Positions 43,474-56,696 of a DNA stretch of 64,000 nt are shown piece after piece; position 1 is the first letter of the stretch, and each line of letters begins with the position of its first letter. Made by a program: the position numbers and the translations under genes. Below the pieces are notes generated by a model. That model saw only the letters and a program-made list of their open reading frames with translations. It was not told the origin of the DNA and searched no databases. This DNA comes from an uncultured Bdellovibrionales bacterium (lineage in GTDB: Bacteria > Patescibacteriota > Minisyncoccia > Moranbacterales > UBA1568). The stretch lies in the NCBI GenBank assembly GCA_964580285.1, contig CAZOKB010000003.1:31403-95402 (forward strand), given 5' to 3'.

Positions 43474-43553
43474 AAACGAGACAAATGAGACACAGGACAG
43501 ACCTTGTCTCATTTTAACATTTGAGACAGTAATATGTCTCGTTTAATCAATTG
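43474..43553. promoter_or_regulatory. cluster of nested inverted repeats built on GAGACA/TGTCTC at island edge
   Basis: Outer aaacgagaca…tgtctcgttt (10 bp), inner atgagaca…tgtctcat and tgagaca-gtaata-tgtctc. tcaattga palindrome at the stop of the cupredoxin gene. Confidence 0.4.
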
Positions 43554-44122
43554 ATGACAATCTTCCCTCGCATCTCCATATGCCCCTCTCCACACCAGAC
43601 CGAGCAGAAAAACTCAAATGTGCCTACCTTGCTAGCCACAAACTCCACAACCGCTCCATCTTCAGGAACATCTTGGTTCACTCCTAGATCAGGAATAACA
43701 AGACCGTGCTTCACATCGGCGTTATGGATGATGAGTCTTACCAGTTCACCTTTCTTGGCGGTAATAGTGGCAGGCTCCCACACATATTGTCTTGCTCCCA
43801 TATGGATAGTACGTTCCGTTCTTCCATTGACGACTTCCGTGCTCGGAGAAGGGAAACTTTCGAAATCTGATGACTTCTCCTTCGAAAGAAGATCGGGAGG
43901 AGAAGTTTTTGGAACAATCGACGTCTGGTCGCTACTCGAGGAACTACTTTCTAGTTTTTCGGTTACTTGTTGACTTATAGAAGGGGTCTCTGATATTCGT
44001 GTTTCTTTTGAAGACTGAGGAGATTCATCGGTATTTTTGGAAGATAGCGATTTATAAACCCACCATGAAACACCCTCCATAAGAGCGAAAATGACAACAA
44101 AAATGACGATGATTTTCTTCAT
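43547..44122 (-). CDS. membrane-anchored cupredoxin with CuA-type (COX2-like) binuclear copper motif
   Basis: N-terminal TM helix. H…C-x3-C-G-x2-H-x2-M pattern (HGLV…FFCSVWCGEGHMEM). No COX1 partner nearby. Confidence 0.6.
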   Translation of the reverse strand: MKKIIVIFVVIFALMEGVSWWVYKSLSSKNTDESPQSSKETRISETPSISQQVTEKLESSSSSSDQTSIVPKTSPPDLLSKEKSSDFESFPSPSTEVVNGRTERTIHMGARQYVWEPATITAKKGELVRLIIHNADVKHGLVIPDLGVNQDVPEDGAVVEFVASKVGTFEFFCSVWCGEGHMEMRGKIVIN

Positions 44123-44142
44123 AGCACTTATCTCGGCTAGAC

Positions 44143-46239
44143 CTAGAGTTCCGATTCAACTCTTTTAAGCAATACCGCATTCGTTGCAACAATGATAGAT
44201 GAAACACTCATGAGAAGAGCCGCAAATTCTGGCCGAAGCATAATGCCAAAATTTGGATACAAAATTCCACCGGCGACCGGTATGGCGAGAATATTGTAGA
44301 TCGAAGCCCAAAAAAGATTTTGCTTCATCTTGCGAACGGTCGCCTTACTTAGGGTTATGGCTCGGAGTATATCCATTGGATCAGACTTCATTAGTACCAC
44401 TTTCGCTGTCTCGATCGCGACATCCGTACCGGCACCAATTGCAATACCGACATCCGACTGAGCCAATGCTGGAGCATCATTAATGCCGTCTCCTACCATC
44501 GCTGTAAATTTCCCTTCCTTTTGGAGTGATTCAACATAGCGAGCTTTGTCTTCAGGGAAGACTTCCGCAAACAGGCGGCCGATGCCCAGCTTTTTTCCAA
44601 TGACCTCAACCGTTTTCTGATTGTCGCCACTAATAAGGGCTACTTCGATCCCGAGCTGCTTCATCCCATCAATAGCCTGTTTGGCTGTTGCCTTGATGGG
44701 ATCAGTGACCACGATGGCACCAGCTGCTTTTTTATCGACGGCTATGAACATGAGTGTTTTCCCTTCAGCCTCAAGCGGCTTTACCCGCACCTCGATACCT
44801 CCCAAGGGAACGTTTCGAAGAGCTAGAAGCTTCCGCGTCCCGATCGATACCGCTTGCCCATCGATCCGAGCCTCGATACCGTGTCCGGCGAGAGACAGGA
44901 AGTTCTCTACCGTCTGCGTCAAAGCGATTCCTCTCGATTCCGCCTCGCCGATAATCGCTCGCGCGAGCGGATGATTGGAACGCATTTCCGTTACCGCAGC
45001 CACAGCAAGCAATTGTTCCTCTGAGAAACCGTTAGAGACAATCACATCTGTTACTTTCGGCTTTCCTTCAGTGAGCGTACCAGTTTTGTCGAGTACGATG
45101 GCCTGGATCTTTGAAACCTGTTCAAGAGTCGGGGCATCTTTGATGAGGATATTATGCTTGGCACCAAGACCCGTTCCTACCGCTACGGCAGTCGGAGTTG
45201 CTAATCCCAGCGCGTCCGGACAGGCAATTACAACCGTAGCAATCGCGAAGGAGAGCGCCAAGAGAAATGGTGAGCCGACGATAAAATACCAGATAATAAA
45301 AACAAGGAGGCCCGACCCGATAGCTCCGATGACTAAGTATTTTGCGAACCTATCGGCGATTCTTTGCCCAGGGGACTTTGAGTTCTGAGCTGTTTCTACC
45401 AATTTCATGATCTGCGCGAGAGCTGTTTCATCACCCACCTTCGTGGCTCGGAAACGGAGTGAACCGTTCTGATTGATGGAGCCGCCCACGACAACATCAC
45501 CTGGTTTTTTTGTCACCGGAAGGGATTCTCCCGTTACCAACGATTCATCAACGGCCGATTCTCCTTCGGATACTTCGCCGTCCACCGGTATCTTGTCACC
45601 AGGCTTCAAAAGGAGCATATCTCCCACTTTGACTTCGCTGGTCGGCACAAGCTCTTCTTTGTCATCACGAATGATACGAGCTTGAGGAGGCACAAGGTTG
45701 AGGATGGCTCTCAGTGCGTCTGTTGTTCCTCGACGGGATTTCATTTCCATCCAGTGACCAAAAAGGACGAAGGTGATAAGCATGGCCGCCGCTTCGTAAT
45801 AGGAATCAGTGCCACCGATCAGAGTCAGCAAAACACTGAAGCCATAGGCTGCCGTGATACCAACCGCAATAAGCACGGCCATGTTCAGGGTCCTATTCTT
45901 CAACGCAAAATACGTCGAGTAGAGGAAAATCCAACCAGAATAAAAGAAGACTGGCGTGGTAAGAAGGAAAAGAAGCCACGGCAGCGGGAGTGGAGACGGA
46001 AGATTGAGACCAAGAAATTCTGTACCGAGGGGCGAGTAGAGAATGATCGGTATGGTGAATATGAGTGCGAAGAAGAACTTGCTTCGAATGTCTATTTCCA
46101 TGAGGCGAGCCATTTCCCGTCCGGCCAGTCCGGTATGATCCATGCCCATGGTCATCGACATGCTCATTTTGAACTTCGCCCAAAAACCCATCTGAGTCAT
46201 GTCATGAGGAACATGACCAGCGTGTTGACTATGATCCAT
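44143..46239 (-). CDS. P1B-type heavy-metal ATPase with His/Met-rich N-terminus and CPD transmembrane motif, no HMA domain
   Basis: [23 protein letters not shown]6 motif reads [14 protein letters not shown]-terminus MDHSQHAGHVPHDMTQM…. Confidence 0.85.
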   Translation of the reverse strand: MDHSQHAGHVPHDMTQMGFWAKFKMSMSMTMGMDHTGLAGREMARLMEIDIRSKFFFALIFTIPIILYSPLGTEFLGLNLPSPLPLPWLLFLLTTPVFFYSGWIFLYSTYFALKNRTLNMAVLIAVGITAAYGFSVLLTLIGGTDSYYEAAAMLITFVLFGHWMEMKSRRGTTDALRAILNLVPPQARIIRDDKEELVPTSEVKVGDMLLLKPGDKIPVDGEVSEGESAVDESLVTGESLPVTKKPGDVVVGGSINQNGSLRFRATKVGDETALAQIMKLVETAQNSKSPGQRIADRFAKYLVIGAIGSGLLVFIIWYFIVGSPFLLALSFAIATVVIACPDALGLATPTAVAVGTGLGAKHNILIKDAPTLEQVSKIQAIVLDKTGTLTEGKPKVTDVIVSNGFSEEQLLAVAAVTEMRSNHPLARAIIGEAESRGIALTQTVENFLSLAGHGIEARIDGQAVSIGTRKLLALRNVPLGGIEVRVKPLEAEGKTLMFIAVDKKAAGAIVVTDPIKATAKQAIDGMKQLGIEVALISGDNQKTVEVIGKKLGIGRLFAEVFPEDKARYVESLQKEGKFTAMVGDGINDAPALAQSDVGIAIGAGTDVAIETAKVVLMKSDPMDILRAITLSKATVRKMKQNLFWASIYNILAIPVAGGILYPNFGIMLRPEFAALLMSVSSIIVATNAVLLKRVESEL

Positions 46240-46241
46240 AA

Positions 46242-46448
46242 TTATTTATGTTCACTATTATGCCCATGACCCTTATGCATGAATAAGTGCATCAGCGGAC
46301 ACAAGAGAAGAACCAGGTACGGCAGTACTGAAAAGACATGCGACGTATGATTTCTTAAAAGAAATACTAGTCCGACCAAACCAATAATCAAAATAACTAG
46401 CCATGTCTTTCGAGAAAATGTTTCGGTCTGTTCCATACATTTGAACAA
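46242..46448 (-). CDS. DUF2933-like small membrane protein
   Basis: LLCPLMHLFMHKGHGH tail typical of DUF2933 proteins found next to metal ATPases. Confidence 0.5.
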   Translation of the reverse strand: MFKCMEQTETFSRKTWLVILIIGLVGLVFLLRNHTSHVFSVLPYLVLLLCPLMHLFMHKGHGHNSEHK

Positions 46449-46453
46449 AGGAA

Positions 46454-46675
46454 TTACACAAGCTCTCCGCGCTTCTCAAGCATCATATGGTGAATCGTCC
46501 CTACTTGAAGCCAGATGGCGATGAGAATGAGAATCCCGGCACACAGCAGAGCATCTATTTTTGTGATCCCAAAAACTCTATTATCGGCACCACCCAGTAC
46601 TGCCGCCAAGAATGAAATGACTCCCACAAAGCCCACCATAACACTGACAACATGCATTAATTTTGATAGCTTCAT
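46454..46675 (-). CDS. small two-TM membrane protein, hypothetical
   Basis: 73 aa, two hydrophobic helices. Confidence 0.4.
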   Translation of the reverse strand: MKLSKLMHVVSVMVGFVGVISFLAAVLGGADNRVFGITKIDALLCAGILILIAIWLQVGTIHHMMLEKRGELV

Positions 46676-46693
46676 ATTTTTGAATTGATTGGT

Positions 46694-47086
46694 TTATAAA
46701 AGAGAATCGACCACTTTCTTGAGTTTTGCTTCAACTTCAACCGCAATGCCAGATAGAGTGGGGTTTTCGATCATACTCATAGCCACTGTCGGAAGAACTG
46801 CCGATACAAATATTTTTCCGCCTTCTTCATACACGATAACATTGCAGGGCAAAAAGAGTCCTATTTCTTTTTCACTTTTTAGAGCCTGGAAAGCGAATGG
46901 CGGATTGCACGCCCCGAGAATAAGGTAATTTTCATACTCAACGTCCAGTTTTTTCTTGAGTGTCGCCTTCACATCGATTTCCGTAAGTACGCCAAACCCC
47001 TCCTTTGAGAGCTCTGCTTTCACTTTTGAAACCGCATCAACAAAAGAAAGAGATACTTCACGCTTATACCCGTATTTCATAGTCAT
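46694..47086 (-). CDS. DUF302-domain protein
   Basis: Start MTMKYGYK. G.FGVLTEIDVKATLKKKL…YLILGACNP pattern of DUF302. Confidence 0.6.
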   Translation of the reverse strand: MTMKYGYKREVSLSFVDAVSKVKAELSKEGFGVLTEIDVKATLKKKLDVEYENYLILGACNPPFAFQALKSEKEIGLFLPCNVIVYEEGGKIFVSAVLPTVAMSMIENPTLSGIAVEVEAKLKKVVDSLL

Positions 47087-47090
47087 TACG

Positions 47091-47339
47091 TTACGAGTTA
47101 AGATCTTTTTTCTTCGACTCAAATTCCTCCTTATCTATTTCCCCCTTGGCGTAGCGCTCCTTCAGGATATCTAATGCTGTGTTACTACCCCTCCTCCCTT
47201 CCGATCCTTGATTGGCAAGCCACTGAACGAAGGCGATGATGCCCCAAATAATGAACGCCCAAAAGGCAATCATTATGATCCATCCAAAAATCATTCCGAA
47301 TGATCCCAACCCGTATCCATAACCCCAGTTACCCATCAT
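47091..47339 (-). CDS. SHOCT-domain small membrane protein
   Basis: Two TM helices, then [26 protein letters not shown] (SHOCT motif). Confidence 0.6.
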
Positions 47340-47363
47340 ATGTCTTCACCTCCTTTCTTATGG

Positions 47364-47663
47364 TTACTTGTCATACGATTTCACCAATTCGATTATTTCT
47401 TCAAGCAACTTCTTTGATAGCTTGCTCTTTTTCAACTGAGAAGCGCTCTTGAGCCTTTCTTCAACATAACTCTGGATAATCCTTCTCTGGACGCTCCGCA
47501 GAAGCCCGAGAATCGCTGCATTCATCTGAAGCAAATCAATCGGTGGTCTTTTTTCTTCTAGCATCATAAGGACTTTCCGAATGTTGCTCGAGGCTTTTTT
47601 CAAACTGATTAGTACCTTCTTGTCCATATTTGAGCCATCAGAATTATTCTGAAACCGGTGCAT
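47364..47663 (-). CDS. CsoR/RcnR/FrmR-family (DUF156)-like repressor lacking canonical Cys/His ligands
   Basis: KKVLISLKKASSNIRKVLMMLEE…IDLLQMNAAILGLLRSV aligns with the CsoR helix pattern. The ligand positions are Pro/Ser/Tyr. Confidence 0.4.
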   Translation of the reverse strand: MHRFQNNSDGSNMDKKVLISLKKASSNIRKVLMMLEEKRPPIDLLQMNAAILGLLRSVQRRIIQSYVEERLKSASQLKKSKLSKKLLEEIIELVKSYDK

Positions 47664-48189
47664 ACTGCTCCTGATATTTCAGAGGATTAACGACACAATA
47701 CGCCTGCTGCGTTCGTCCCTTTATCAGGACGTACAGAGACACAGATAGAAGAATAATGGCCACAAAGGAAAGCTCTACGCCTCTAAAGGGTAGGTAGGCA
47801 GCGGCACCGCCGAATCCCAAAAGAGCCAGAATCGGCAGACCACAACTTGCACAACCGCTTCCGACTATCCCAAGTACAGAACTCCCGCCTATGGCTAGGT
47901 GCATTTTTCCAGAAGACCGTATCGTCCGAAGTCGCTCAAGCATGAACACAAAATTCAGACCGGTAAGCGTCGCGACCGTTATAAGCAAGATCAGACTGAA
48001 CGTACTCATAGCCGTCCACATGCCAACGAGCAGCGCGATGAGGATATCTACTCGATAATCAAACGAGTGTACGCCAAAGAGCGCATCCTTTACCAGCCCG
48101 GCATTCATGAGATACACAGTCGCTATGACATAGAGTACCGCGATTGTGGCTGCCGGAAGAATTACTTGTAAAGACCAGACACGTCTCAT
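47644..48189 (-). CDS. polytopic membrane protein with GCASCG motif, hypothetical
   Basis: 181 aa, 4-5 TM helices. Confidence 0.4.
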   Translation of the reverse strand: MRRVWSLQVILPAATIAVLYVIATVYLMNAGLVKDALFGVHSFDYRVDILIALLVGMWTAMSTFSLILLITVATLTGLNFVFMLERLRTIRSSGKMHLAIGGSSVLGIVGSGCASCGLPILALLGFGGAAAYLPFRGVELSFVAIILLSVSLYVLIKGRTQQAYCVVNPLKYQEQYAPVSE

Positions 48190-48202
48190 AGACTATTCTT
48201 CC

Positions 48203-49063
48203 TTATTTGTCATTTAACTTCTCATCAATAATGGTCTTGAATGCACTGAATGGCTGGGCGCCCACAACGAGCTGTCCTTCAATTTGACCATCCTTACTCG
48301 AAGCACCAACAACCCACGATGGCGTACCAGAAACTCCAACTGCCGAGCCATCAGCTATATCCTTTGCTACTTCGTCTTTGAACTTTCCGGAATCCAAACA
48401 TTGCTGGAACTGATCCACGTTGAGACCAAGGTTCTTCGCGATCACCGGTAGCTGCGTCAAAGCCAGACCTGTCCCACCGGCAGTAGTCTGAGTGAAGATT
48501 TGGTCGTGAAACTTGAAATACGTGGCATCATTGCTTTGACTTCTGGCACACTCGGCCGCTTCGGCTTCCTTTTGTGCATTCGCGTGAAACGACAACGGAA
48601 AATCACGATAGACCAATTTTACCTTGCCGGTATCAATGTAGTTCTTCTTGAGTTCTGGCAGAAGATCGGTAAACGACTTCTTGCAGAATGGACACTCGTA
48701 GTCCGAAAACTCGATTAATGTCACGGGGGCATTCTTATTTCCGAGTACTGGATCATTATCAACAGAAACTTTTACCGGGCCACTTGGCTGGCCAGCTGGT
48801 TGCTGGGCGGCCGGTGTTGGATTTCCCGATGGCTGTGCTACTATCGCTGAGCCAGAATCAGCTAACTTCTGAAACTTTCCACTGGAAGAAAGGATGCTAG
48901 CACTAATGATGAGCCCTCCGAGAAGAATTGATCCAGCGATAATCCAAGCTCCCCGGCTTGGCATATCTTTCCGCTCCCTCGCACCAACTCCTTTTCCCGC
49001 CTCGCTTTCTCCGCTCTTTGTTTTTACTTCTTCACCTTCTTCTTGTTTGTACCAGTCGTCCAT
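48203..49063 (-). CDS. DsbA-family thiol:disulfide oxidoreductase (island copy)
   Basis: TM anchor, Pro-rich linker, CPFC active site (EFSDYECPFCKK). Confidence 0.7.
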   Translation of the reverse strand: MDDWYKQEEGEEVKTKSGESEAGKGVGARERKDMPSRGAWIIAGSILLGGLIISASILSSSGKFQKLADSGSAIVAQPSGNPTPAAQQPAGQPSGPVKVSVDNDPVLGNKNAPVTLIEFSDYECPFCKKSFTDLLPELKKNYIDTGKVKLVYRDFPLSFHANAQKEAEAAECARSQSNDATYFKFHDQIFTQTTAGGTGLALTQLPVIAKNLGLNVDQFQQCLDSGKFKDEVAKDIADGSAVGVSGTPSWVVGASSKDGQIEGQLVVGAQPFSAFKTIIDEKLNDK

Positions 49064-49088
49064 AATGATGAGTATGTTGATTATTAAC

Positions 49089-50726
49089 TTAATTAGTCTT
49101 TCCCACGGTGTAAGAGAGCATCATTCCGCTCTCCGCATGTTCCAGAATGTGACAATGCGCGACCCAAGTACCTGGATTCGTCGCGTCAAGCAGGATATCG
49201 ACCGTGTCACCCTTGGCTACCAGTACCGTATCTGCCCACACAGGGTTTTCATTTCTCACGCCATTGGTTGAAAGCACCATGAGACGCTGCCCATGAAAGT
49301 GAACCGGATGCTGCATCGGGTGCATGGATTGTGGGTCGTTGAAGATGCGAATCTTTACCTTATCACCCACCTGAAAGTTCCAGTCCTTGATATCCATGTT
49401 TACTTTGCCGCTTGCTTTATCCACAAGCTTCCACTTCATCATGGCAGAAGTAGACTGAGCGTTCATGCCAGACATGGTATCTTCCCACTCCAGCGCATCG
49501 CCATCATCACCCATACCCATGCCTTTGTCTGACATAGCCATCCCGCCACTGCCCATCGAGTGCATCCCGCTCGGCATACCCTTACGCATCTCCGCTGTCA
49601 TATCGAGCGAAAGATTCAGGCTTTTGTCAGGAGCCTTTGAGAGGTACGTGTTCATGAGACCTTCCAGCTCAGAAACAACGGCTCCATTCGTCCGCGCAAC
49701 TGAAAACTCATTGCTATAGGAGGGATTAGCAAGTTCAGAGGAAACCGACACTTTACCCAAGGGGTATTCCTTATCAGGCGTCTGGTGTTTCATCGCATAC
49801 TCACCTGACTTTTCGAAGAAGACATCCACGACACGGCGCTCCCCGGGAGCAATCATTATCTGATCGACAAAAGTTTCTTTTTCATACTTTCCGACATCCG
49901 CACCCACGAGCTTCATCTTGGCTCCAGGAAGAACGAAATTGAAGAGTCGGGTATTAGCGGCATTCGTAAGATAGAGACGCGCCACTTCACCTTGTTTCGC
50001 CTGAAGTCTGTAATCTGTCTCGCCGTTCACGAGCATGACATTTCCAAAACGTCCCATGAGCGTGTGATCAGCCACCTTGGCATCAAACGGGAGCATGCCC
50101 TTGGCATCAAGCGCAATATCATCAAGCATGAGCGGGACTTCGCGATTCACCGGTGCCCAGTAAGCCGTGTCTTTCGGAGTCACAATGATGTTGGCATAGA
50201 GCCCAGATTCGAGTGTGTAATCAGTTCTGACGTGAGGGTGATACCAGAAGACGCCGGGGTCTGAAAACTTGAGCTTGTAGGTAAATGACTCGCCTACAGC
50301 GATTTCTTTTTGAGTCACCCCCGGTACGCCGTCAAACGGATTGTCCATCCGTACTCCATGAGCATGGAGTGTGGTCGCGATGTCGCCGTCATTCTTCAAA
50401 TTGACCGTAATCTCTGAACCCTCGGGAACGCGAATGGTCGGACCAGGGAGAGAACCATTGTAGCCGAGCATTTTCACAGTACGGCCAGCAATTACCTTTT
50501 TCACAGGCGTGATGGCGAGATCAATCGACTGGTTGTTCTTGAGATCGACGATCTGAGACTGGCCAGCCTGTTCTATACTCCCTGACGGCGGCGGGGCATC
50601 CAAACTTGTAGCCGTTTTTTTACTAGAACTAACTTTTGTTTGACGGTTCGTCATTCCATACCAGGTTAGAGAGCCCAGAATGATTGCCGTTACTCCCACC
50701 ACTACTGCTACTTGCTTGTTGTTCAT
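49089..50726 (-). CDS. multicopper oxidase (CueO/CopA-like) with Met-rich insert
   Basis: Copper-ligand motifs HAHG, WYHPH, HPxHxHG, HCHILEH. GMPSGMHSMGSGGMAMSDKGMGMG Met-rich segment. Signal peptide. Confidence 0.85.
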   Translation of the reverse strand: MNNKQVAVVVGVTAIILGSLTWYGMTNRQTKVSSSKKTATSLDAPPPSGSIEQAGQSQIVDLKNNQSIDLAITPVKKVIAGRTVKMLGYNGSLPGPTIRVPEGSEITVNLKNDGDIATTLHAHGVRMDNPFDGVPGVTQKEIAVGESFTYKLKFSDPGVFWYHPHVRTDYTLESGLYANIIVTPKDTAYWAPVNREVPLMLDDIALDAKGMLPFDAKVADHTLMGRFGNVMLVNGETDYRLQAKQGEVARLYLTNAANTRLFNFVLPGAKMKLVGADVGKYEKETFVDQIMIAPGERRVVDVFFEKSGEYAMKHQTPDKEYPLGKVSVSSELANPSYSNEFSVARTNGAVVSELEGLMNTYLSKAPDKSLNLSLDMTAEMRKGMPSGMHSMGSGGMAMSDKGMGMGDDGDALEWEDTMSGMNAQSTSAMMKWKLVDKASGKVNMDIKDWNFQVGDKVKIRIFNDPQSMHPMQHPVHFHGQRLMVLSTNGVRNENPVWADTVLVAKGDTVDILLDATNPGTWVAHCHILEHAESGMMLSYTVGKTN

Positions 50727-50755
50727 AGAAGTTATTTATTGTTTAAGGATTCACT

Positions 50756-51280
50756 TTAGAGAGTCATAAATTGCGAGAAGTCATTTCCCTTCTTCTGATA
50801 TATCTCGTATGGAGCCTGCTTCACGCCAGGCATGCCGGGCGTCCCTATCGGCATACCCGGGAGACCGATACCGTCGATATCCGGCTTTTCCGAAAGCAGT
50901 TTCTCGACAGCAATCAGTGGCACATGTCCTTCAACAAAGTAATCTCCGATCACGGTCGTATGGCAGCTCTGCTTATCTTCTTCAATACCATATTGTTCCT
51001 TTATGGAACCCATGTCCTGAGTGGATTTCACGTCGACCTCATATCCTTGCCTCTTCAACTCTGCAATGTAGCCATTGCAACACCCGCAATTCGGCGCTTT
51101 ATACACTGTTGCTTTGCGCTCAATTGGAAGGGCAGCAATTTCTCCCGCGCTTTCCTGCACAGCCGTTTCTGTAGCAGCTGTTTTTTCGATCCCGGAATTT
51201 TTTTCAGGACCGGAAAATAACACTCTTCCTCCAATCACTATTCCGAGCACTATAATTCCTATAAAGAATAGGCGTATCAT
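50756..51280 (-). CDS. DUF411 (CopG-like) metal-binding protein
   Basis: N-terminal TM helix, CGCC motif (YKAPNCGCCNGY), conserved His. Confidence 0.6.
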   Translation of the reverse strand: MIRLFFIGIIVLGIVIGGRVLFSGPEKNSGIEKTAATETAVQESAGEIAALPIERKATVYKAPNCGCCNGYIAELKRQGYEVDVKSTQDMGSIKEQYGIEEDKQSCHTTVIGDYFVEGHVPLIAVEKLLSEKPDIDGIGLPGMPIGTPGMPGVKQAPYEIYQKKGNDFSQFMTL

Positions 51281-51307: not shown

Positions 51308-54300
51308 CTACTTTTTGAATCGAAACTCAGAGCCGACAAAGTGGAAGGCATCCAAAACTGATTTCGTTTCGGGCAATACTCCGGCTACAATCACTGCGTT
51401 ACCGAAAAAGTTATCAATCCGATCCCCCTCTTTATCGAAGAGTTTTTCGGCTCGCATCACCGCTGCTTCCGCAGAACCAATATAGATCGGTTGGTAGCGT
51501 TTGCCGCCGATTTTGACCGGAGCAAAGGCATCGTCAGCCATCATCTTACGGAAAGCCTCCGGAACATTATTCTGGTTAACACGATAGAAGAACTTCAACT
51601 CTCCATTGTCCGTCAGCAAAGCATCGGTTTCCGCCACAGTTTTTAGTCCATCGAAGCTTCCCTTGCTCAGGATATGAAACTCATCAAGAACGGTCCCGGT
51701 AGACGCCAGTACTCCGCCGACACGTATTTCAGGCGCACCGAAAAATTCCTTGAGTGTATCGCCTGATTTTTCGAAGAGTTTTTCCTGTTGCATCAATGCC
51801 GCTTCATTCGCTCCGATAAGCATCATATTGCCAGAAAGCGCTAGCGCCCCATCCGATACCTTCAAAGACCGTTCCGGATTTTCAGCTCCCAAGAAAAGCT
51901 TTGGCATTTCTCCGGCAAGATTGAGTTTGATCGGGTTATCGGCAATATAGGCCGCAATTTCCTTGGTCGCGCCAAACGCCATCTCTCCAGTCTTTGCTGT
52001 TTCCATTGATTGTCCACTGAATTTGGCAAATTGGAAGAAGAGAGCTGAGAACGCGACAACCATCACGAGCGGGGCTGCCAAAGAAACAAAGTTCCTTCTT
52101 CCTGGTCTGAAGAAACGGAGGAGGAGAGAATTACCTACGACAGAGATGGAGGACAGAGCCATAGCAAGACCAGCAAGCTCTGGCTTCAAGACCAAACCAA
52201 CCCCAGCAAACACTCGGGCTGCCACTGGAATACCCATCACATTGTAGAAGAGCGCGAAGAACATATTTTGCTTGATCTTTGACATGCTTTCTTTAGAGAG
52301 CTCGATAGCCGTCACCACGTCATGAACGTCGCTTCGCATGAGAACGATATCACCCGCCTCCATAGCAACATCCGTTCCCGATCCCATGGCTACCCCCAGA
52401 TCAGCTTGTGCCAATGCTGGAGCATCATTGATCCCATCACCCACCATAGCGACCCGTTTCCCTTTCTTCTGAAGTTCCTTCACATGTTCTGCCTTGTCCT
52501 CAGGCAATACTTCAGCAAACACATTGGTCACCCCAACCTGCGAGGCGATGGCGTTGGCCGTCCGAGCATTATCGCCAGTGATCATGTAGACTTCGATTCC
52601 CATTCCTGCCAACTTTTTCACAGCGTCACGCGAAGATTCTTTCACGGTATCGGCGACCGCGACCGCTCCGAGAACTTTTTCCCGAGTAGCCAAAATCATA
52701 GCGGTTTTCCCTTGTTCTTCCAGGCGCATGAGTTTCCGATTGATGCGATCAAGGGGGAGTTTGATAACATCGGTGATAAGTCTCCGATTTCCGAAGAAAT
52801 ATTCGGTACCAGCGATACTTCCTTGCACACCATGTCCTGGGATGGCCTTGAAGTCGCTCACGTCTTCCAAAGCACAACCTTCTTCTTTTGAATACTCATA
52901 GATGGCTTCAGCTAAAGGATGTTCCGAAAGCTTTTCCAAGCTGGCAGCTATTTCCAAGACTTCATCTTCATCGGCATCATTGAAAGTAAGGATATCTGTC
53001 ACCTCGGGCTTTCCTTTCGTGAGAGTGCCGGTCTTATCAAAGATAACCGCATTGATTTTGCAGGCGGCTTCCAACGCTTCGCCACCTTTGATGAGAATTC
53101 CGTTCTCTGCGCCTTTCCCCGTACCGACCATGAGCGCTGTCGGCGTCGCTAGTCCCAAGGCACAAGGACAGGCAATCACTATGACAGCGGTAAAGGCCAT
53201 GAGAGCAAACGCCAGGGTAGCCCCCAAGAAGAAGTACCAGATAACGAATGTAAGGAGAGCAATCCCGATCACGGCTGGGACAAACCAAGCAGAAATACGG
53301 TCGGCAAAATTCTGAATCGGCGCTTTCGAGCCCTGCGCTTCTTCGATAAGGCGAATAATCTGCGCCAACGCTGTTTCGCTTCCTATCCGAGTCGCTTCAA
53401 ATTCAAACCCGCCCGTCTTGTTGACCGTCCCGCCGATCACCATGTCGCCTTCATTTTTTTCTATCGGGAGACTTTCTCCAGTAATCATAGATTCATCAAC
53501 CGCTGAGGAACCTTTGATAATTTTTCCATCGACAGGGATCTTCTCGCCGGGACGAACAATGATGATATCCCCGTGAACGACTGCGTCCACCGGTACATCG
53601 AGCGTTTCACCATTTCGCATTACCCGAGCGGTTTTGGCCTGGAGACCCATGAGCTTTTTGATGGCGTCAGACGTCCTTCCCTTGGTTCGAACCTCAAGCC
53701 ATTTACCGAGAATGACAAAGGTGATGAGGAAAGCCGCTGTTTCAAAGTAAAGCTCTGGGATTTTGGAACCGTTGAGACCGATGACGCTATCATTTTTCAC
53801 TACATAAAGAACAAAGTTCACAAGGCTATAGAAGAACGCCGTCGACGTACCGATTGCAATAAGACTATCCATGTTGAATGTCTTCATCTTAAGCGCCGAC
53901 CAAGCACCTTTGTAGAATCCCGCTCCGATAATGAATTGGATGGGAATGGTGAAAAGCAGGGAGAATATGCCGACATAGGGAAGAAGCGATGCTTTTCCAG
54001 GGAGCACAAAGAAATCAAGTAGCATGAAATAGAGCATCGGGAGGCTCATAATGAAGCCGAAGATGAACTTGTTGAAGTAACTGCTGATTTCCCTATCGCG
54101 CTTTCGACGCTCGTACTCCGTATCTTTCGGGTCAACTTCTTCTGCTTTGTATCCAGCTTTCGCCACCGCTTGTTTGAGTGTGGTGACCTCTACTTTGCCC
54201 TCATCAAACACCACCAGGGCCTTTTCGGCCGCGAAATTCACATTCGCCTGTTTGACCCCCGGAACTTTCTTGAGCGAGCGTTCGATGAGGTTGGCACACG

Positions 54301-54916
54301 ATGAACAGTGCATCCCAAACAAGGAAAGACTCATCCGTCTCTGCGGATCAAGGCTTGTACCAACTTTTGCCCCTGTTCCTTGATTGATAACAGGAACGAT
54401 TGTTTCTTGATTCGGCAGATTGCTTCCATTTCGAGAAAGACTTCCTCCGATGCCCTGAATACTGCCTATCGCTCTCAGAATTTGGTTGACGATATCTTTC
54501 GACGGAGTACCTGTCTCTGGCATATCAACTTCTGCCGATTGACTGTTCAAGATGGTTCCCTCGAAGTATGGTCTGCCATTCCCATCTTCCAAAACTTTTC
54601 CATCGGCTTCTACACGAGACTCGATTTTTACTTTCAGTCGAACATCCATTGCCTTCTCACTATCCTCCTCGTGGTTCTCTTTTATTGAGGCAACACCCTC
54701 ATCCGAAACAATTCCCTCATATCCCGCTCGCCTGATGGCCTCTAGCGATTGCTCGAGGGTGCTTCTCGTCTCATCGAGAAGAAATACCCCTTGACCAGCC
54801 TCATGGTCAATCTGAATCTCACTGATTCCAGGAAGCTCCTTGAGTTCTTCACCGATGAGCATTTCACAGGAGTGACACGTCATTCCCTTAATGGATACTG
54901 TTATTCGTTTAGTCAT
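51308..54916 (-). CDS. copA: copper-translocating P1B-1 ATPase (CopA-like, 1202 aa) with two N-terminal HMA domains and ~350-aa C-terminal extension (extra TM + duplicated domain)
   Basis: GMTCHSCE and [11 protein letters not shown] motifs. [29 protein letters not shown]. After the usual C-terminus, one more TM helix and two ~45-aa repeats (EKLFEKSGD…, EKLFDKEGD…). Confidence 0.85.
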
Positions 54917-55201: not shown

Positions 55202-56572
55202 TCAGCTGGCAGCCACGACGGTAAACACGCCCCGATACATACCCATAGAACATGAGAATGGGATCTGTCCAACTTCTTTCGGTGTGAACTCAATGACGTT
55301 TTGTCCAAGTGACAGATTCTTTCGGACCCCGATTTTCGAAGCAATAACCGTTGAAGCACAGGTGTACTGATCTTTGGCATCAATAACCCATTTGACTGGG
55401 ATGCCTTGCTGAATGGTGAATTTGCTCGGGGCATAGCCACTGGAGCTTTCTGTCATGCGCACAACTTGAACGCCATTTTCAATTTTTACGTTCGGATCAG
55501 TCGACTGGGCAGCTACCGCTTTTGTATCAGCTCCAGAAGAAACACTTAGTTGCCAGTCCGTCAGATTGAGACCGTTGTTAATATTGAAGAAGGCCAGTGC
55601 TATCACAACGATTCCGGCGAATTTGAAGAATCGTTGCGCAAAAATGCCCTTGATGACAGAAGTTAATCCACCGATACCCAGAAGCCCCGGGGCTGTTCCC
55701 AGAGCGAAGAGTCCCATGATGAGACTTCCCTGCATGAAGCTTCCCGTACTTACAGCGTAGATTTGCATTGCTTGAGTGAAACCGCAGGGCAGAAAAAAGG
55801 TCATGGCCCCGAGAACAAATGAATTTTTGTGACTGTACTCTCTCTGTTTGTCGCTGATACCCAGTAACCGACTGATTCCTTTAGGAAGAGCAAAACTTAC
55901 TGTTTCCAACCGCGGGCACACGCCTGTCAGTTTCACGCCAAGGAGCAGCATGACAACACCGACGGCTATGGTAACAATACCGAGAGTGGTTCCAGAAAGT
56001 TGGAGAAATGAACCGAGCGACCCAAGAAGACCACCGAGGACGGCGTACGAGAGAATGCGACCAAGATTGAAGAAAAGATGCGGGCGAAACTTCTGCAATG
56101 GAGTCGCTTCGGGATGTTTTTCTGAATGTCGGGCAGAAATTCCCAGCACCAATCCTCCTACTAAGGCAAGGCAGGTAGAAAATCCTGCTGTGAGTCCGAC
56201 GAGGAGCGCCACCGAAAGACTCGTCGGTTTCGCTGCGTTTCCGACATTTATGAGATCAGAGAACCCAAATTCTTTGAGGATGAAGTAGAGTCCTACGACG
56301 AACAAAAATGCGATGCCCAGATCCTTATAATCACTCGCATTCCGACTGAACCAAGGCTTTTTCCCGACGACTCCGATCGTATACCCCGCTTCCCGCACGG
56401 CATTTTCAATCGCCTGTTTGCTCGGTTTGACTTCGTACGAAACTTCAGCAACTCCTTTCTTGTAATTGACGTAACTTTTTTTGATTTCTGGAATTTCGGA
56501 GAGCTTATCTTCAATAAGAATTTCACAAGATCTGCAGTGCATTCCAGCGATAGGTACTAAAAGTTTTTTCAT
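55202..56572 (-). CDS. tri-domain protein: HMA domain + polytopic permease (TauE/SafE- or DsbD_2-like) + C-terminal cupredoxin-like domain
   Basis: Start MKKLLVPIAGMHCRSCE. ~8 TM helices with conserved Cys (STCLAL, LPCGF). C-terminal beta domain with C…CSMGMY. Confidence 0.55.
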   Translation of the reverse strand: MKKLLVPIAGMHCRSCEILIEDKLSEIPEIKKSYVNYKKGVAEVSYEVKPSKQAIENAVREAGYTIGVVGKKPWFSRNASDYKDLGIAFLFVVGLYFILKEFGFSDLINVGNAAKPTSLSVALLVGLTAGFSTCLALVGGLVLGISARHSEKHPEATPLQKFRPHLFFNLGRILSYAVLGGLLGSLGSFLQLSGTTLGIVTIAVGVVMLLLGVKLTGVCPRLETVSFALPKGISRLLGISDKQREYSHKNSFVLGAMTFFLPCGFTQAMQIYAVSTGSFMQGSLIMGLFALGTAPGLLGIGGLTSVIKGIFAQRFFKFAGIVVIALAFFNINNGLNLTDWQLSVSSGADTKAVAAQSTDPNVKIENGVQVVRMTESSSGYAPSKFTIQQGIPVKWVIDAKDQYTCASTVIASKIGVRKNLSLGQNVIEFTPKEVGQIPFSCSMGMYRGVFTVVAAS

Positions 56573-56696
56573 AGAATACATTGATTTGACGATTAAAACC
56601 CATTCACATAATAAAATGGGTACAAAAAGTGCCAGGGCAGAGAAAGAGTATCCAAAAGGACAAACTGTCTCAGCTTCCTGACACACTTCAATCAAT

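Follow-up and report, generated by a model that had tools for sequence, protein, structure and literature searches.

Why should a CopA-type copper ATPase run on past its catalytic core into one more membrane helix and a duplicated soluble domain? The question is raised by a gene in a 64,000-nucleotide stretch of the bacterial contig CAZOKB010000003.1 (assembly GCA_964580285.1), which was analyzed as a whole and is referred to here as the window. One unbroken open reading frame (ORF) of the ORF list encodes a protein of 1202 amino acids (aa), with its stop codon at 51308-51310. An earlier reading of the DNA, referred to here as the original prediction, had suggested that the added part lies outside the membrane as an acceptor or chaperone module for exported copper or, alternatively, that a lost stop codon had fused CopA to a downstream gene. 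Our analysis demonstrated that ATPase and extension form a genuine, evolutionarily fixed gene fusion conserved across bacteria of the candidate phyla radiation (CPR). We favor, with a probability of about 0.55, the reading of the extension as an extracytoplasmic accessory module that is functionally coupled to copper export as an acceptor or docking site.

Residues 1-941 constitute a full copper-type P1B-1 ATPase by Pfam, NCBIfam and motif criteria (Table 1). Pfam recognized the E1-E2_ATPase (E = 1e-63) and Hydrolase (E = 3e-37) domains together with two HMA stretches, and TIGR01511, the model for copper-translocating P-type ATPases, scored 634 bits against a cutoff of 397, with TIGR01525 likewise above its cutoff. 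The equivalog model of E. coli CopA aligned to aa 1-938 but reached 685 bits, under its cutoff of 1316 bits. All P-type catalytic motifs were found (TGES at aa 479, DKTGT at aa 627 and GDGIND at aa 826), as was the transmembrane signature for Cu(I), comprising CPC at aa 583 in M4, YN at aa 891 in M5 and MALSS at aa 919, the MxxSS site of M6. The N-terminal CxxC metal-binding motif required of a CopA occurs in both HMA stretches (CHSC14 and CSSC204). Only the end of the chain departs from CopA: in place of eight transmembrane (TM) helices and a cytoplasmic C-terminus shortly after M6, there are 261 extra residues including a ninth helix. The protein is an architectural variant of CopA, for which copper transport is predicted. 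The ~125 aa between the HMA domains (aa ~68-194; 54335-54715, minus strand) are unusually long for a CopA linker and matched no family. A promoter and terminator scan around the fusion gene gave no signal better than that of shuffled sequence.

The core ends in RFFRPGRR (aa 934-941), from where the chain continues in frame through a stop-free junction that coincides with no break in base composition. The extension (aa 942-1202; nucleotides 51311-52093) consists of the ninth TM helix and a soluble domain of 236 aa. A CopA-type ORF continuing past its normal end and an extra hydrophobic helix, both proposed in the original prediction, were thereby borne out; the helix at aa 944-966 gave a 19-residue Kyte-Doolittle mean of 2.38, the second-highest peak of the protein. 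The sizes had to be corrected, as ~350 aa had been assigned to the extension and ~330 aa to the part following the helix. The interval proposed for the extension, 51308-52366, was too wide: ~88 aa at the end of the ATPase core (M5-M6) fall within it, and this piece matches positions 460-542 of TIGR01511.

The soluble part had also been described as containing two related repeats of ~45 aa. Their relatedness held, with 27/50 identities over 50 residues between aa 1039-1083 and aa 1151-1194 (pairwise BLASTP, E = 2e-14), and the unit that is repeated turned out to be about twice that size. When the two halves of the family were compared by hhalign on a 95-member alignment, aa 996-1088 matched aa 1097-1199 over 92 columns with a probability of 99.9% (E = 6.2e-32). 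In the AlphaFold2 (AF2) models, the same succession occurs twice over: four strands are followed by a helix and a hairpin, and these by a short helix and one more strand. Because of the match between the halves and the pattern repeated twice in the models, we conclude that the soluble region is a tandem duplication of an alpha/beta unit of ~92 aa, preceded by a linker and one helix. The conserved core reads G1035..E1038-A..M1042..G1052-D..G1060..T1073..D1078..H1081 in repeat 1 and G1147..E1150-A..M1154..G1164-D..G1172..T1184..D1189..H1192 in repeat 2. The soluble domain contains no Cys, only two His, and neither a CxxC nor a His-rich motif.

Variants with one unit fused to the ATPase also exist (P0005/L001, P0080, P0105, P0119, L032, L037 and L038). 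Their single copy corresponds to repeat 2, and one-unit and two-unit forms both persist. Another fused homologue, the partial 638-aa P0136, continues for ~260 aa past the two repeats with the His/Met-rich stretches 'FLHEHPEW' and 'VMHTHPMTE'; this further domain had no Pfam match.

A fusion found in a single contig could have arisen if a frameshift in the sequencing, an overlooked stop codon or chimeric assembly had joined CopA to a downstream gene, and such an artefact would fit two of our observations: homologues of the extension stand alone directly 3' of CopA in other lineages, and the nearest database homologues first retrieved were all cut by contig edges. The ORFs of these truncated homologues, however, passed the junction motif 'KRNYISLVAPL' and ran on without a stop as far as the contig edge. 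The identical 1202-aa protein was present on three contigs in public assemblies (NCBI, ENA and Logan sources), and the full-length members of its 90% cluster, from NCBI, ENA and Logan assemblies, measured 1184-1202 aa. We also scanned one genome per GTDB species and found 35 loci with the extension domain; the scan was seeded with a narrower family alignment (A1) and was thus biased toward the fused CPR class. At 31/31 loci with enough upstream DNA, the domain formed the C-terminus of an ORF of 1014-1239 aa with DKTGT and CPC, and these relatives, from many CPR classes, were 32-95% identical to the extension of the window. Three of the remaining four loci were open at a contig edge and the fourth, L031, was a partial fused ORF reaching the edge. 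The ninth helix is conserved in the fused homologues, and the junction of L002 reads KRNYISLVAPLIMMAVF, matching that of the window. At L033, L034 and L036, the long fused ORF appeared only under genetic code 25 (UGA = Gly). Furthermore, an exhaustive family-profile search of 1.84 billion representative proteins gave 185 representative matches, among them seven full-length fused ATPases of 954-1125 aa. The independent assemblies and the 31 conserved loci, code 25 genomes included, effectively refute the artefact, whose probability we consider negligible. We conclude that the fusion is genuine and old. The loss of a stop codon raised by the original prediction is thus untenable as a sequencing or assembly error and remains probable as evolutionary history, given the stand-alone genes 3' of unextended CopA described below.

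Many of the record titles name Patescibacteria/CPR lineages (Falkow-, Magasanik-, Gracili-, Peregrini-/Peri-, Woese-, Doudna- and Paceibacteria, and Saccharibacteria), and the TypA and pyruvate-kinase genes of the window belong to 90% clusters named Candidatus Moranbacteria. Several TPA_asm metagenome-assembled genomes with the fusion (L004, L005, L016, L020, L021, L023, L025, L037 and L038) are titled Bdellovibrionales, Gammaproteobacteria or Pseudomonadales. These titles look like mis-assignments, in view of the Candidatus Moranbacteria clusters to which the housekeeping genes of the window belong and of the CPR origin of the other loci. P0029 and P0090 have W at a conserved G (e.g. 'ELAWLAMALSS'), as if UGA had been translated as Trp.

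The extension also occurs as a separate gene, which the original prediction had proposed to look for in related genomes; such genes were found in other lineages, beside copper ATPases. The stand-alone class comprises about 56-65 representative clusters (50% identity) of proteins of ~245-285 aa (also given as ~250-280), in which one N-terminal hydrophobic helix, a TM anchor, precedes both repeats and no FtsX domain is present. All are annotated as 'hypothetical protein', two of them under the name Candidatus Woesearchaeota archaeon. In 6/7 genomic contexts examined, a copper-type P-type ATPase lay within two genes of the stand-alone gene: three of these ATPases were complete and unextended (741-764 aa), one was complete with 724 aa, and two were split or fragmented. 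The stand-alone gene followed the ATPase on the same strand, directly after a 10-nucleotide gap in the P0194 context and with one small gene between them in each of L042 and L043, or lay directly upstream of it (L039, L040 and L044). In L045, it was located at the contig start and adjoined a cupredoxin gene. DsbD_2 and/or cupredoxin genes accompanied 6/7 of the stand-alone genes. Because the domain is fused to CopA in CPR bacteria and encoded separately beside a copper ATPase elsewhere, the family appears functionally tied to CopA in a 'Rosetta-stone' relationship. The CPR fusion would most simply have arisen from a gene pair of CopA followed by the anchored protein, the N-terminal anchor of the partner becoming TM9.

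On which side of the membrane does the domain reside? Both termini of CopA are cytoplasmic in the solved CopA structures. CopA cores have eight TM helices (PMC7558416), and with one more helix the C-terminus should therefore be outside. The ninth helix is preceded by the positively charged RPGRR, and the anchors of the stand-alone proteins show a positive-inside bias, 38 having more K/R on the N-side versus four having fewer. Because of RPGRR, the anchor bias, the extracytoplasmic fold and sequence neighbors and the lack of Cys, we place the domain outside, held by TM9; the extracytoplasmic location suggested by the original prediction thus gains indirect support. No A-x-A-type site for signal-peptidase cleavage was evident after TM9. 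If the helix did not span the membrane, or if the helix count were different, the extension would lie in the cytoplasm as a C-terminal domain for regulation or metal binding. In P1B ATPases, metal-binding domains at the termini are usually cytoplasmic (PMC11970713). This topology is nevertheless very improbable for a strongly hydrophobic segment of 23 residues that has positive residues on the N-terminal side, for a domain that homologues carry behind an N-terminal signal-anchor, and for a family without CxxC or His-rich motif whose fold and sequence neighbors are all extracytoplasmic.

These neighbors emerged from structure prediction and profile searches. The extension alone belongs to no family in Pfam, NCBIfam or PHROGs, had no Pfam match even at E ≤ 1, and retrieved nothing from the PDB with a single sequence; a profile of 63 sequences retrieved a phage capsid protein and CRABP2 at E of at least 0.018, which we dismissed as chance-level noise. 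AF2 modeled aa 942-1202 with a pLDDT of 81, about 90 over the soluble part (six sequences), and aa 979-1202 with a pLDDT of 91 and a pTM of 0.86 (ten sequences). For both models, the top and only high-probability Foldseek matches in the PDB were extracytoplasmic domains of MacB-type (type VII) ABC transporters: YbbP (E = 6.5e-3 and 7.4e-3, probabilities 1.0 and 0.99 for the two models), LolE and LolC, including 'LolC periplasmic domain lacking the Hook' (probabilities 0.93-0.97), as well as MacB (5nik_J, 5lj7_B) and HrtB. N-domains of p97/Cdc48 also appeared and were dismissed (probability about 0.1, root-mean-square deviation 16-17 Å). Among sub-threshold Pfam matches, MacB_PCD (PF12704) was the commonest, found for 11/63 family members with a best E of 7e-6. 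It is the only family reached by both the three-dimensional search (Foldseek probabilities 0.9-1.0) and the sequence profiles. The original prediction would have been undermined by a match to a common cytoplasmic domain; the neighbors found are of the opposite kind.

Members of the MacB_PCD family (LolC/LolE, MacB, YbbP, HrtB and FtsX) have an extracytoplasmic alpha/beta domain adjoining a TM helix, as is predicted for the extension, and a beta-alpha-beta core motif is common to both, '(I/V)xG..xAxx(L/M)....GDxI...VxG(V/I)'. The extension differs in its tandem unit, in lacking the Hook hairpin of LolC, in its one tether and in being attached to a P-type rather than an ABC ATPase. It is not a member of PF12704 by gathering score, for the window copy and the consensus alike, nor does it have the insertion typical of four-helix FtsX-type permeases (between TM1 and TM2, with an ABC ATPase partner), being instead tethered singly to a P-type ATPase. 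The domain is probably related, in a divergent and duplicated form, to the periplasmic core of MacB-type transporters; the family itself is unnamed and without a Pfam or NCBIfam model.

Conservation within the family was counted on the alignment of 95 sequences, in which the repeat consensus reads G..E-A-x-(M)-M..E-K-L-F...G-D-x-[IL]..F-F-G....V-x-G-[IV]-L..T-x-T-x-L-D-(M-M)-H-F. The Met is kept at 84/89 (M1042) and 89/95 (M1154), the Asp at 89/92 (D1078) and 95/95 (D1189), the His in 83 (H1081) and 82 (H1192) of about 92-95 sequences, and the Glu in 82 (E1038) and 89 (E1150). A near-invariant Met itself, accompanied by His, Asp and Glu, is the pattern expected of a candidate outer-face Cu(I)/Cu(II) site, and CusF of E. 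coli binds Cu(I) through one His and two Met (PMC7558416).

A further component is encoded immediately upstream of the CopA fusion. This gene, the most conserved neighbor of the fusion, at 55202-56695, encodes an HMA domain, seven hydrophobic segments and a C-terminal cupredoxin, and a homologue lay upstream on the same strand in 27/31 fused loci and downstream in one more. The seven segments comprise one helix and a six-helix DsbD_2/CcdA-like core with Cys175 and Cys304. In the PDB, the cupredoxin matched CupA of S. pneumoniae (2MRY/4F2E, E = 9e-14) and the cupredoxin N-domain of S. pneumoniae CopA (4F2F, E = 4e-13), and its ligands of the C...CxMxM type are conserved (C446...C482-S-M-G-M). 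The listed TTG start of this gene is probably too far upstream, the real start likely being a Met near MKKLLVPIAGMHCRSCE.

How might such a domain serve a copper pump? We read it as an accessory subunit because an anchored stand-alone form is found beside copper ATPases and because its likeness is to MacB-type extracytoplasmic domains. Cu(I) would be exported by the eight-helix core with its two cytoplasmic HMA domains, and TM9 would carry the chain across the membrane to the outside and hold the duplicated domain beside the exit of the pump. There, the domain could receive or shield the Cu(I) leaving CopA, possibly via the Glu, Met, Asp and His that each repeat contains. The domain may also serve as a dock for an external partner, possibly the cupredoxin of the putatively co-transcribed HMA-DsbD_2 protein, whose Cys ligands the CcdA-like module could keep reduced. 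In this way the metal would be passed to an acceptor instead of being set free beside the membrane, for which the transfer of Cu(I) from CopA to the external chaperone CusF is a precedent (PMC7558416). The acceptor or chaperone role suggested by the original prediction is compatible with the conserved linkage to the copper ATPase and with the conserved Glu, Met, Asp and His. Direct copper binding by the domain, within the reading as an accessory module, is a tentative proposal that we would not yet bet on.

Several points weigh against the accessory-module reading. The window copy is without the second Met of each 'MM' pair and without the 'MM' before His that are seen in the family consensus. 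Some of the conserved Glu, Met, Asp and His may be structural, inherited from a MacB_PCD-like scaffold, as the motif aligns with LolC. The remote relationship is distant as well: the Foldseek matches to MacB-type domains had E of at least 6.5e-3 and TM-scores of 0.25-0.33, and the family consensus matched MacB_PCD at E = 1.7e-5 over profile positions 104-194 of 207 with 25.7 bits, below the gathering score of 27. Comparison of the family by hhalign with E. coli LolC, with LolE and with a five-sequence LolC/LolE/MacB/YbbP profile was not significant (E = 0.017-0.43); the repeat core was always paired with the same stretch of LolC, ...(Hook)...FNVIGTF, the region expected. One membrane tether also contrasts with the two stalk helices of MacB-type mechanotransmission. 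As for the partner, the outward side of its cupredoxin follows only from the count of seven hydrophobic segments, and CupA of S. pneumoniae is described as handing copper to CopA for export, on the cytoplasmic side (PMC7558416).

Could the domain instead belong to the pump without ever touching copper? As a structural, 'beta-subunit-like' accessory, it would contribute to folding, stability, oligomerization or envelope anchoring. A single TM helix with an extracytoplasmic domain mirrors known accessory subunits of P-type ATPases (PMC10654040), separate and fused versions both occur, there is overlap between the conserved motif and the one that forms the structural core of MacB_PCD-like domains, and the domain has no Cys and just two His. 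Such a scaffold would not explain why it is specifically Met that is near-invariant rather than a mixture of Leu, Ile and Val, and the invariant Asp and the near-invariant His and Glu in both repeats suggest a functional site. Most copper ATPases, moreover, work without such a subunit. We therefore consider a purely structural role unlikely, though one to be taken seriously. A different possibility is an external sensor or regulator that responds to copper outside the cell, or to some other ligand or partner, by adjusting pump activity through TM9, the helix directly following M6 with its MxxSS metal site. MacB-family extracytoplasmic domains do include ligand- and partner-binding modules. The examples are of the BceB and FtsX types; the matches seen here are LolC/LolE, YbbP, MacB and HrtB. 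A sensor is without precedent in P1B ATPases, its stand-alone versions would need to signal in trans, and a cytoplasmic CsoR-type regulator is already encoded in the island described below; this makes a sensory role improbable. The accessory module coupled to copper export remains our preferred reading.

A bolder extension of this reading would connect the two neighboring genes. The P1B pumps of CPR and DPANN organisms might have a beta-subunit-like, MacB-PCD-derived partner, fused in CPR bacteria and separate in archaea, that takes part in a two-protein relay with a CcdA-like reductase-cupredoxin, HMA meeting HMA inside and extension meeting cupredoxin outside. Such a relay would collect Cu(I) where it leaves the pump and maintain the acceptor thiols at the cell surface in their reduced form. 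We regard this as speculative and, in its entirety, rather doubtful.

The remaining neighbors form a contiguous copper-resistance island on one strand (43547-51280; Table 1), which also includes a CsoR-type repressor and a DsbA-like thioredoxin. Most of the island is common only to the two closest relatives, L004 and L005. Its second P1B ATPase is without HMA and has a His/Met-rich N-terminus (MDHSQHAGHVPHDMTQM...MSMSMTMGMDH) and CPD, not CPC or CPH, in M4; its 90% cluster of 34 members, on contigs of up to 363 kb, is larger than the clusters of the neighboring genes. The small multi-pass membrane protein at 47644-48189 had no Pfam match. The DUF302 ORF probably starts downstream of its listed TTG.

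Table 1. Features of the CopA fusion gene and of its neighborhood (positions in the window; aa numbers refer to the 1202-aa protein unless a protein length is given).
Feature	Position	Strand	Basis or remark
Whole gene, CopA-type P1B-1 ATPase + C-terminal extension	51308..54916	-	ORF list, Pfam, TIGR01511
HMA domain 1, N-terminal, about aa 4-67, CHSC at aa 14	54716..54907	-	Pfam HMA, motif
HMA domain 2, about aa 195-259, CSSC at aa 204	54140..54334	-	Pfam HMA, best stretch 197-257
ATPase core, aa 270-941, 8 TM helices + A/P/N domains	52094..54109	-	Pfam, NCBIfam, hydropathy, motifs
Ninth TM helix, aa 944-966, RPGRR just before	52019..52087	-	Hydropathy; kept in fused homologues
Linker + N-terminal amphipathic helix, aa 967-995	51932..52018	-	AF2: low pLDDT to about aa 981, helix about aa 979-992
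Repeat unit 1, aa 996-1088	51653..51931	-	Half-versus-half hhalign, conservation, AF2 pLDDT about 90 or higher
Repeat unit 2, aa 1097-1199	51320..51628	-	BLASTP, hhalign, conservation, AF2
HMA + 7 hydrophobic segments (DsbD_2/CcdA-like) + CupA-like cupredoxin	55202..56695	-	Pfam, PDB sequence search, hydropathy
Cupredoxin/COX2-like	43547-44122	-	Pfam
Second P1B ATPase, 698 aa	44143-46239	-	Pfam
DUF302 ORF	46694-47122	-	Overlaps the SHOCT ORF by 32 nucleotides as listed
SHOCT ORF	47091-47339	-	Overlaps the DUF302 ORF as listed
181-aa multi-pass membrane protein, 'GSGCASCGLP' CxxC inside a hydrophobic segment, between the DsbA-like and CsoR genes	47644-48189	-	
Multicopper oxidase	49089-50726	-	Pfam
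DUF411	50756-51280	-	Pfam

Compared with the CopA proteins of E. coli, A. fulgidus and L. pneumophila, aa 1-941 are a complete member by domains and motifs. Described CopA proteins end a few residues after M6 in the cytoplasm and have eight TM helices (PMC7558416), whereas here a ninth helix and a 236-aa domain placed outside are added. Full-text literature of limited coverage contained no account of a CopA whose C-terminus forms an external domain, nor any of the extension family. The core is an ordinary CopA; what appears new is a conserved, undescribed domain, putatively an accessory one, on a known pump. In its proposed role, the taking of Cu(I) at the outer exit of a pump, the domain would resemble CusF of E. 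coli and CueP of Salmonella, and Met, His, Asp and Glu are conserved in its family. CusF and CueP are soluble and come from Gram-negative bacteria, whereas the extension domain is tethered covalently or by a membrane anchor and belongs to CPR bacteria and DPANN archaea. No homology of the extension to CusF, CopC/PcoC or CueP was found by Pfam, NCBIfam, PDB sequence search or Foldseek.

In layout, the stand-alone form is similar to the accessory subunits of other P-type ATPases, Na,K-ATPase beta, Cdc50 and KdpC, which have one or two TM helices and an extracytosolic domain, and it is likewise encoded with its pump. One review of P-type ATPases names accessory subunits of this extracytosolic kind for P1A (KdpC), P2C (beta) and P4A (Cdc50), and none for P1B (PMC10654040). 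We found no homology between these subunits and the extension family, which differs also in being fused to the catalytic chain in one lineage. The likeness to the CupA/CopA system of S. pneumoniae (4F2E, 4F2F) concerns the upstream neighbor, which is genetically coupled to CopA as CupA is. Unlike CupA, its cupredoxin is fused to HMA and a seven-segment CcdA-like domain and may face outward, and the N-terminus of the CopA studied here is of the HMA type, whereas that of S. pneumoniae CopA is of the cupredoxin type.

The exit of Cu(I) from P1B ATPases and its receipt outside are understood only for a few Gram-negative systems, in which CopA passes it to CusF or CueP. Where a Cus system is absent, the extension domain is a candidate for the external acceptor or docking site that is still missing, and its covalent attachment would open copper hand-off to direct structural and biochemical tests. 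Should the remote relationship prove correct, the MacB-type periplasmic fold would be extended to the context of P-type ATPases. If the accessory-module reading is true, P1B pumps would join the P-type families that have an extracytosolic accessory module. The finding provides a lead on how CPR and DPANN organisms may handle exported copper outside the membrane.

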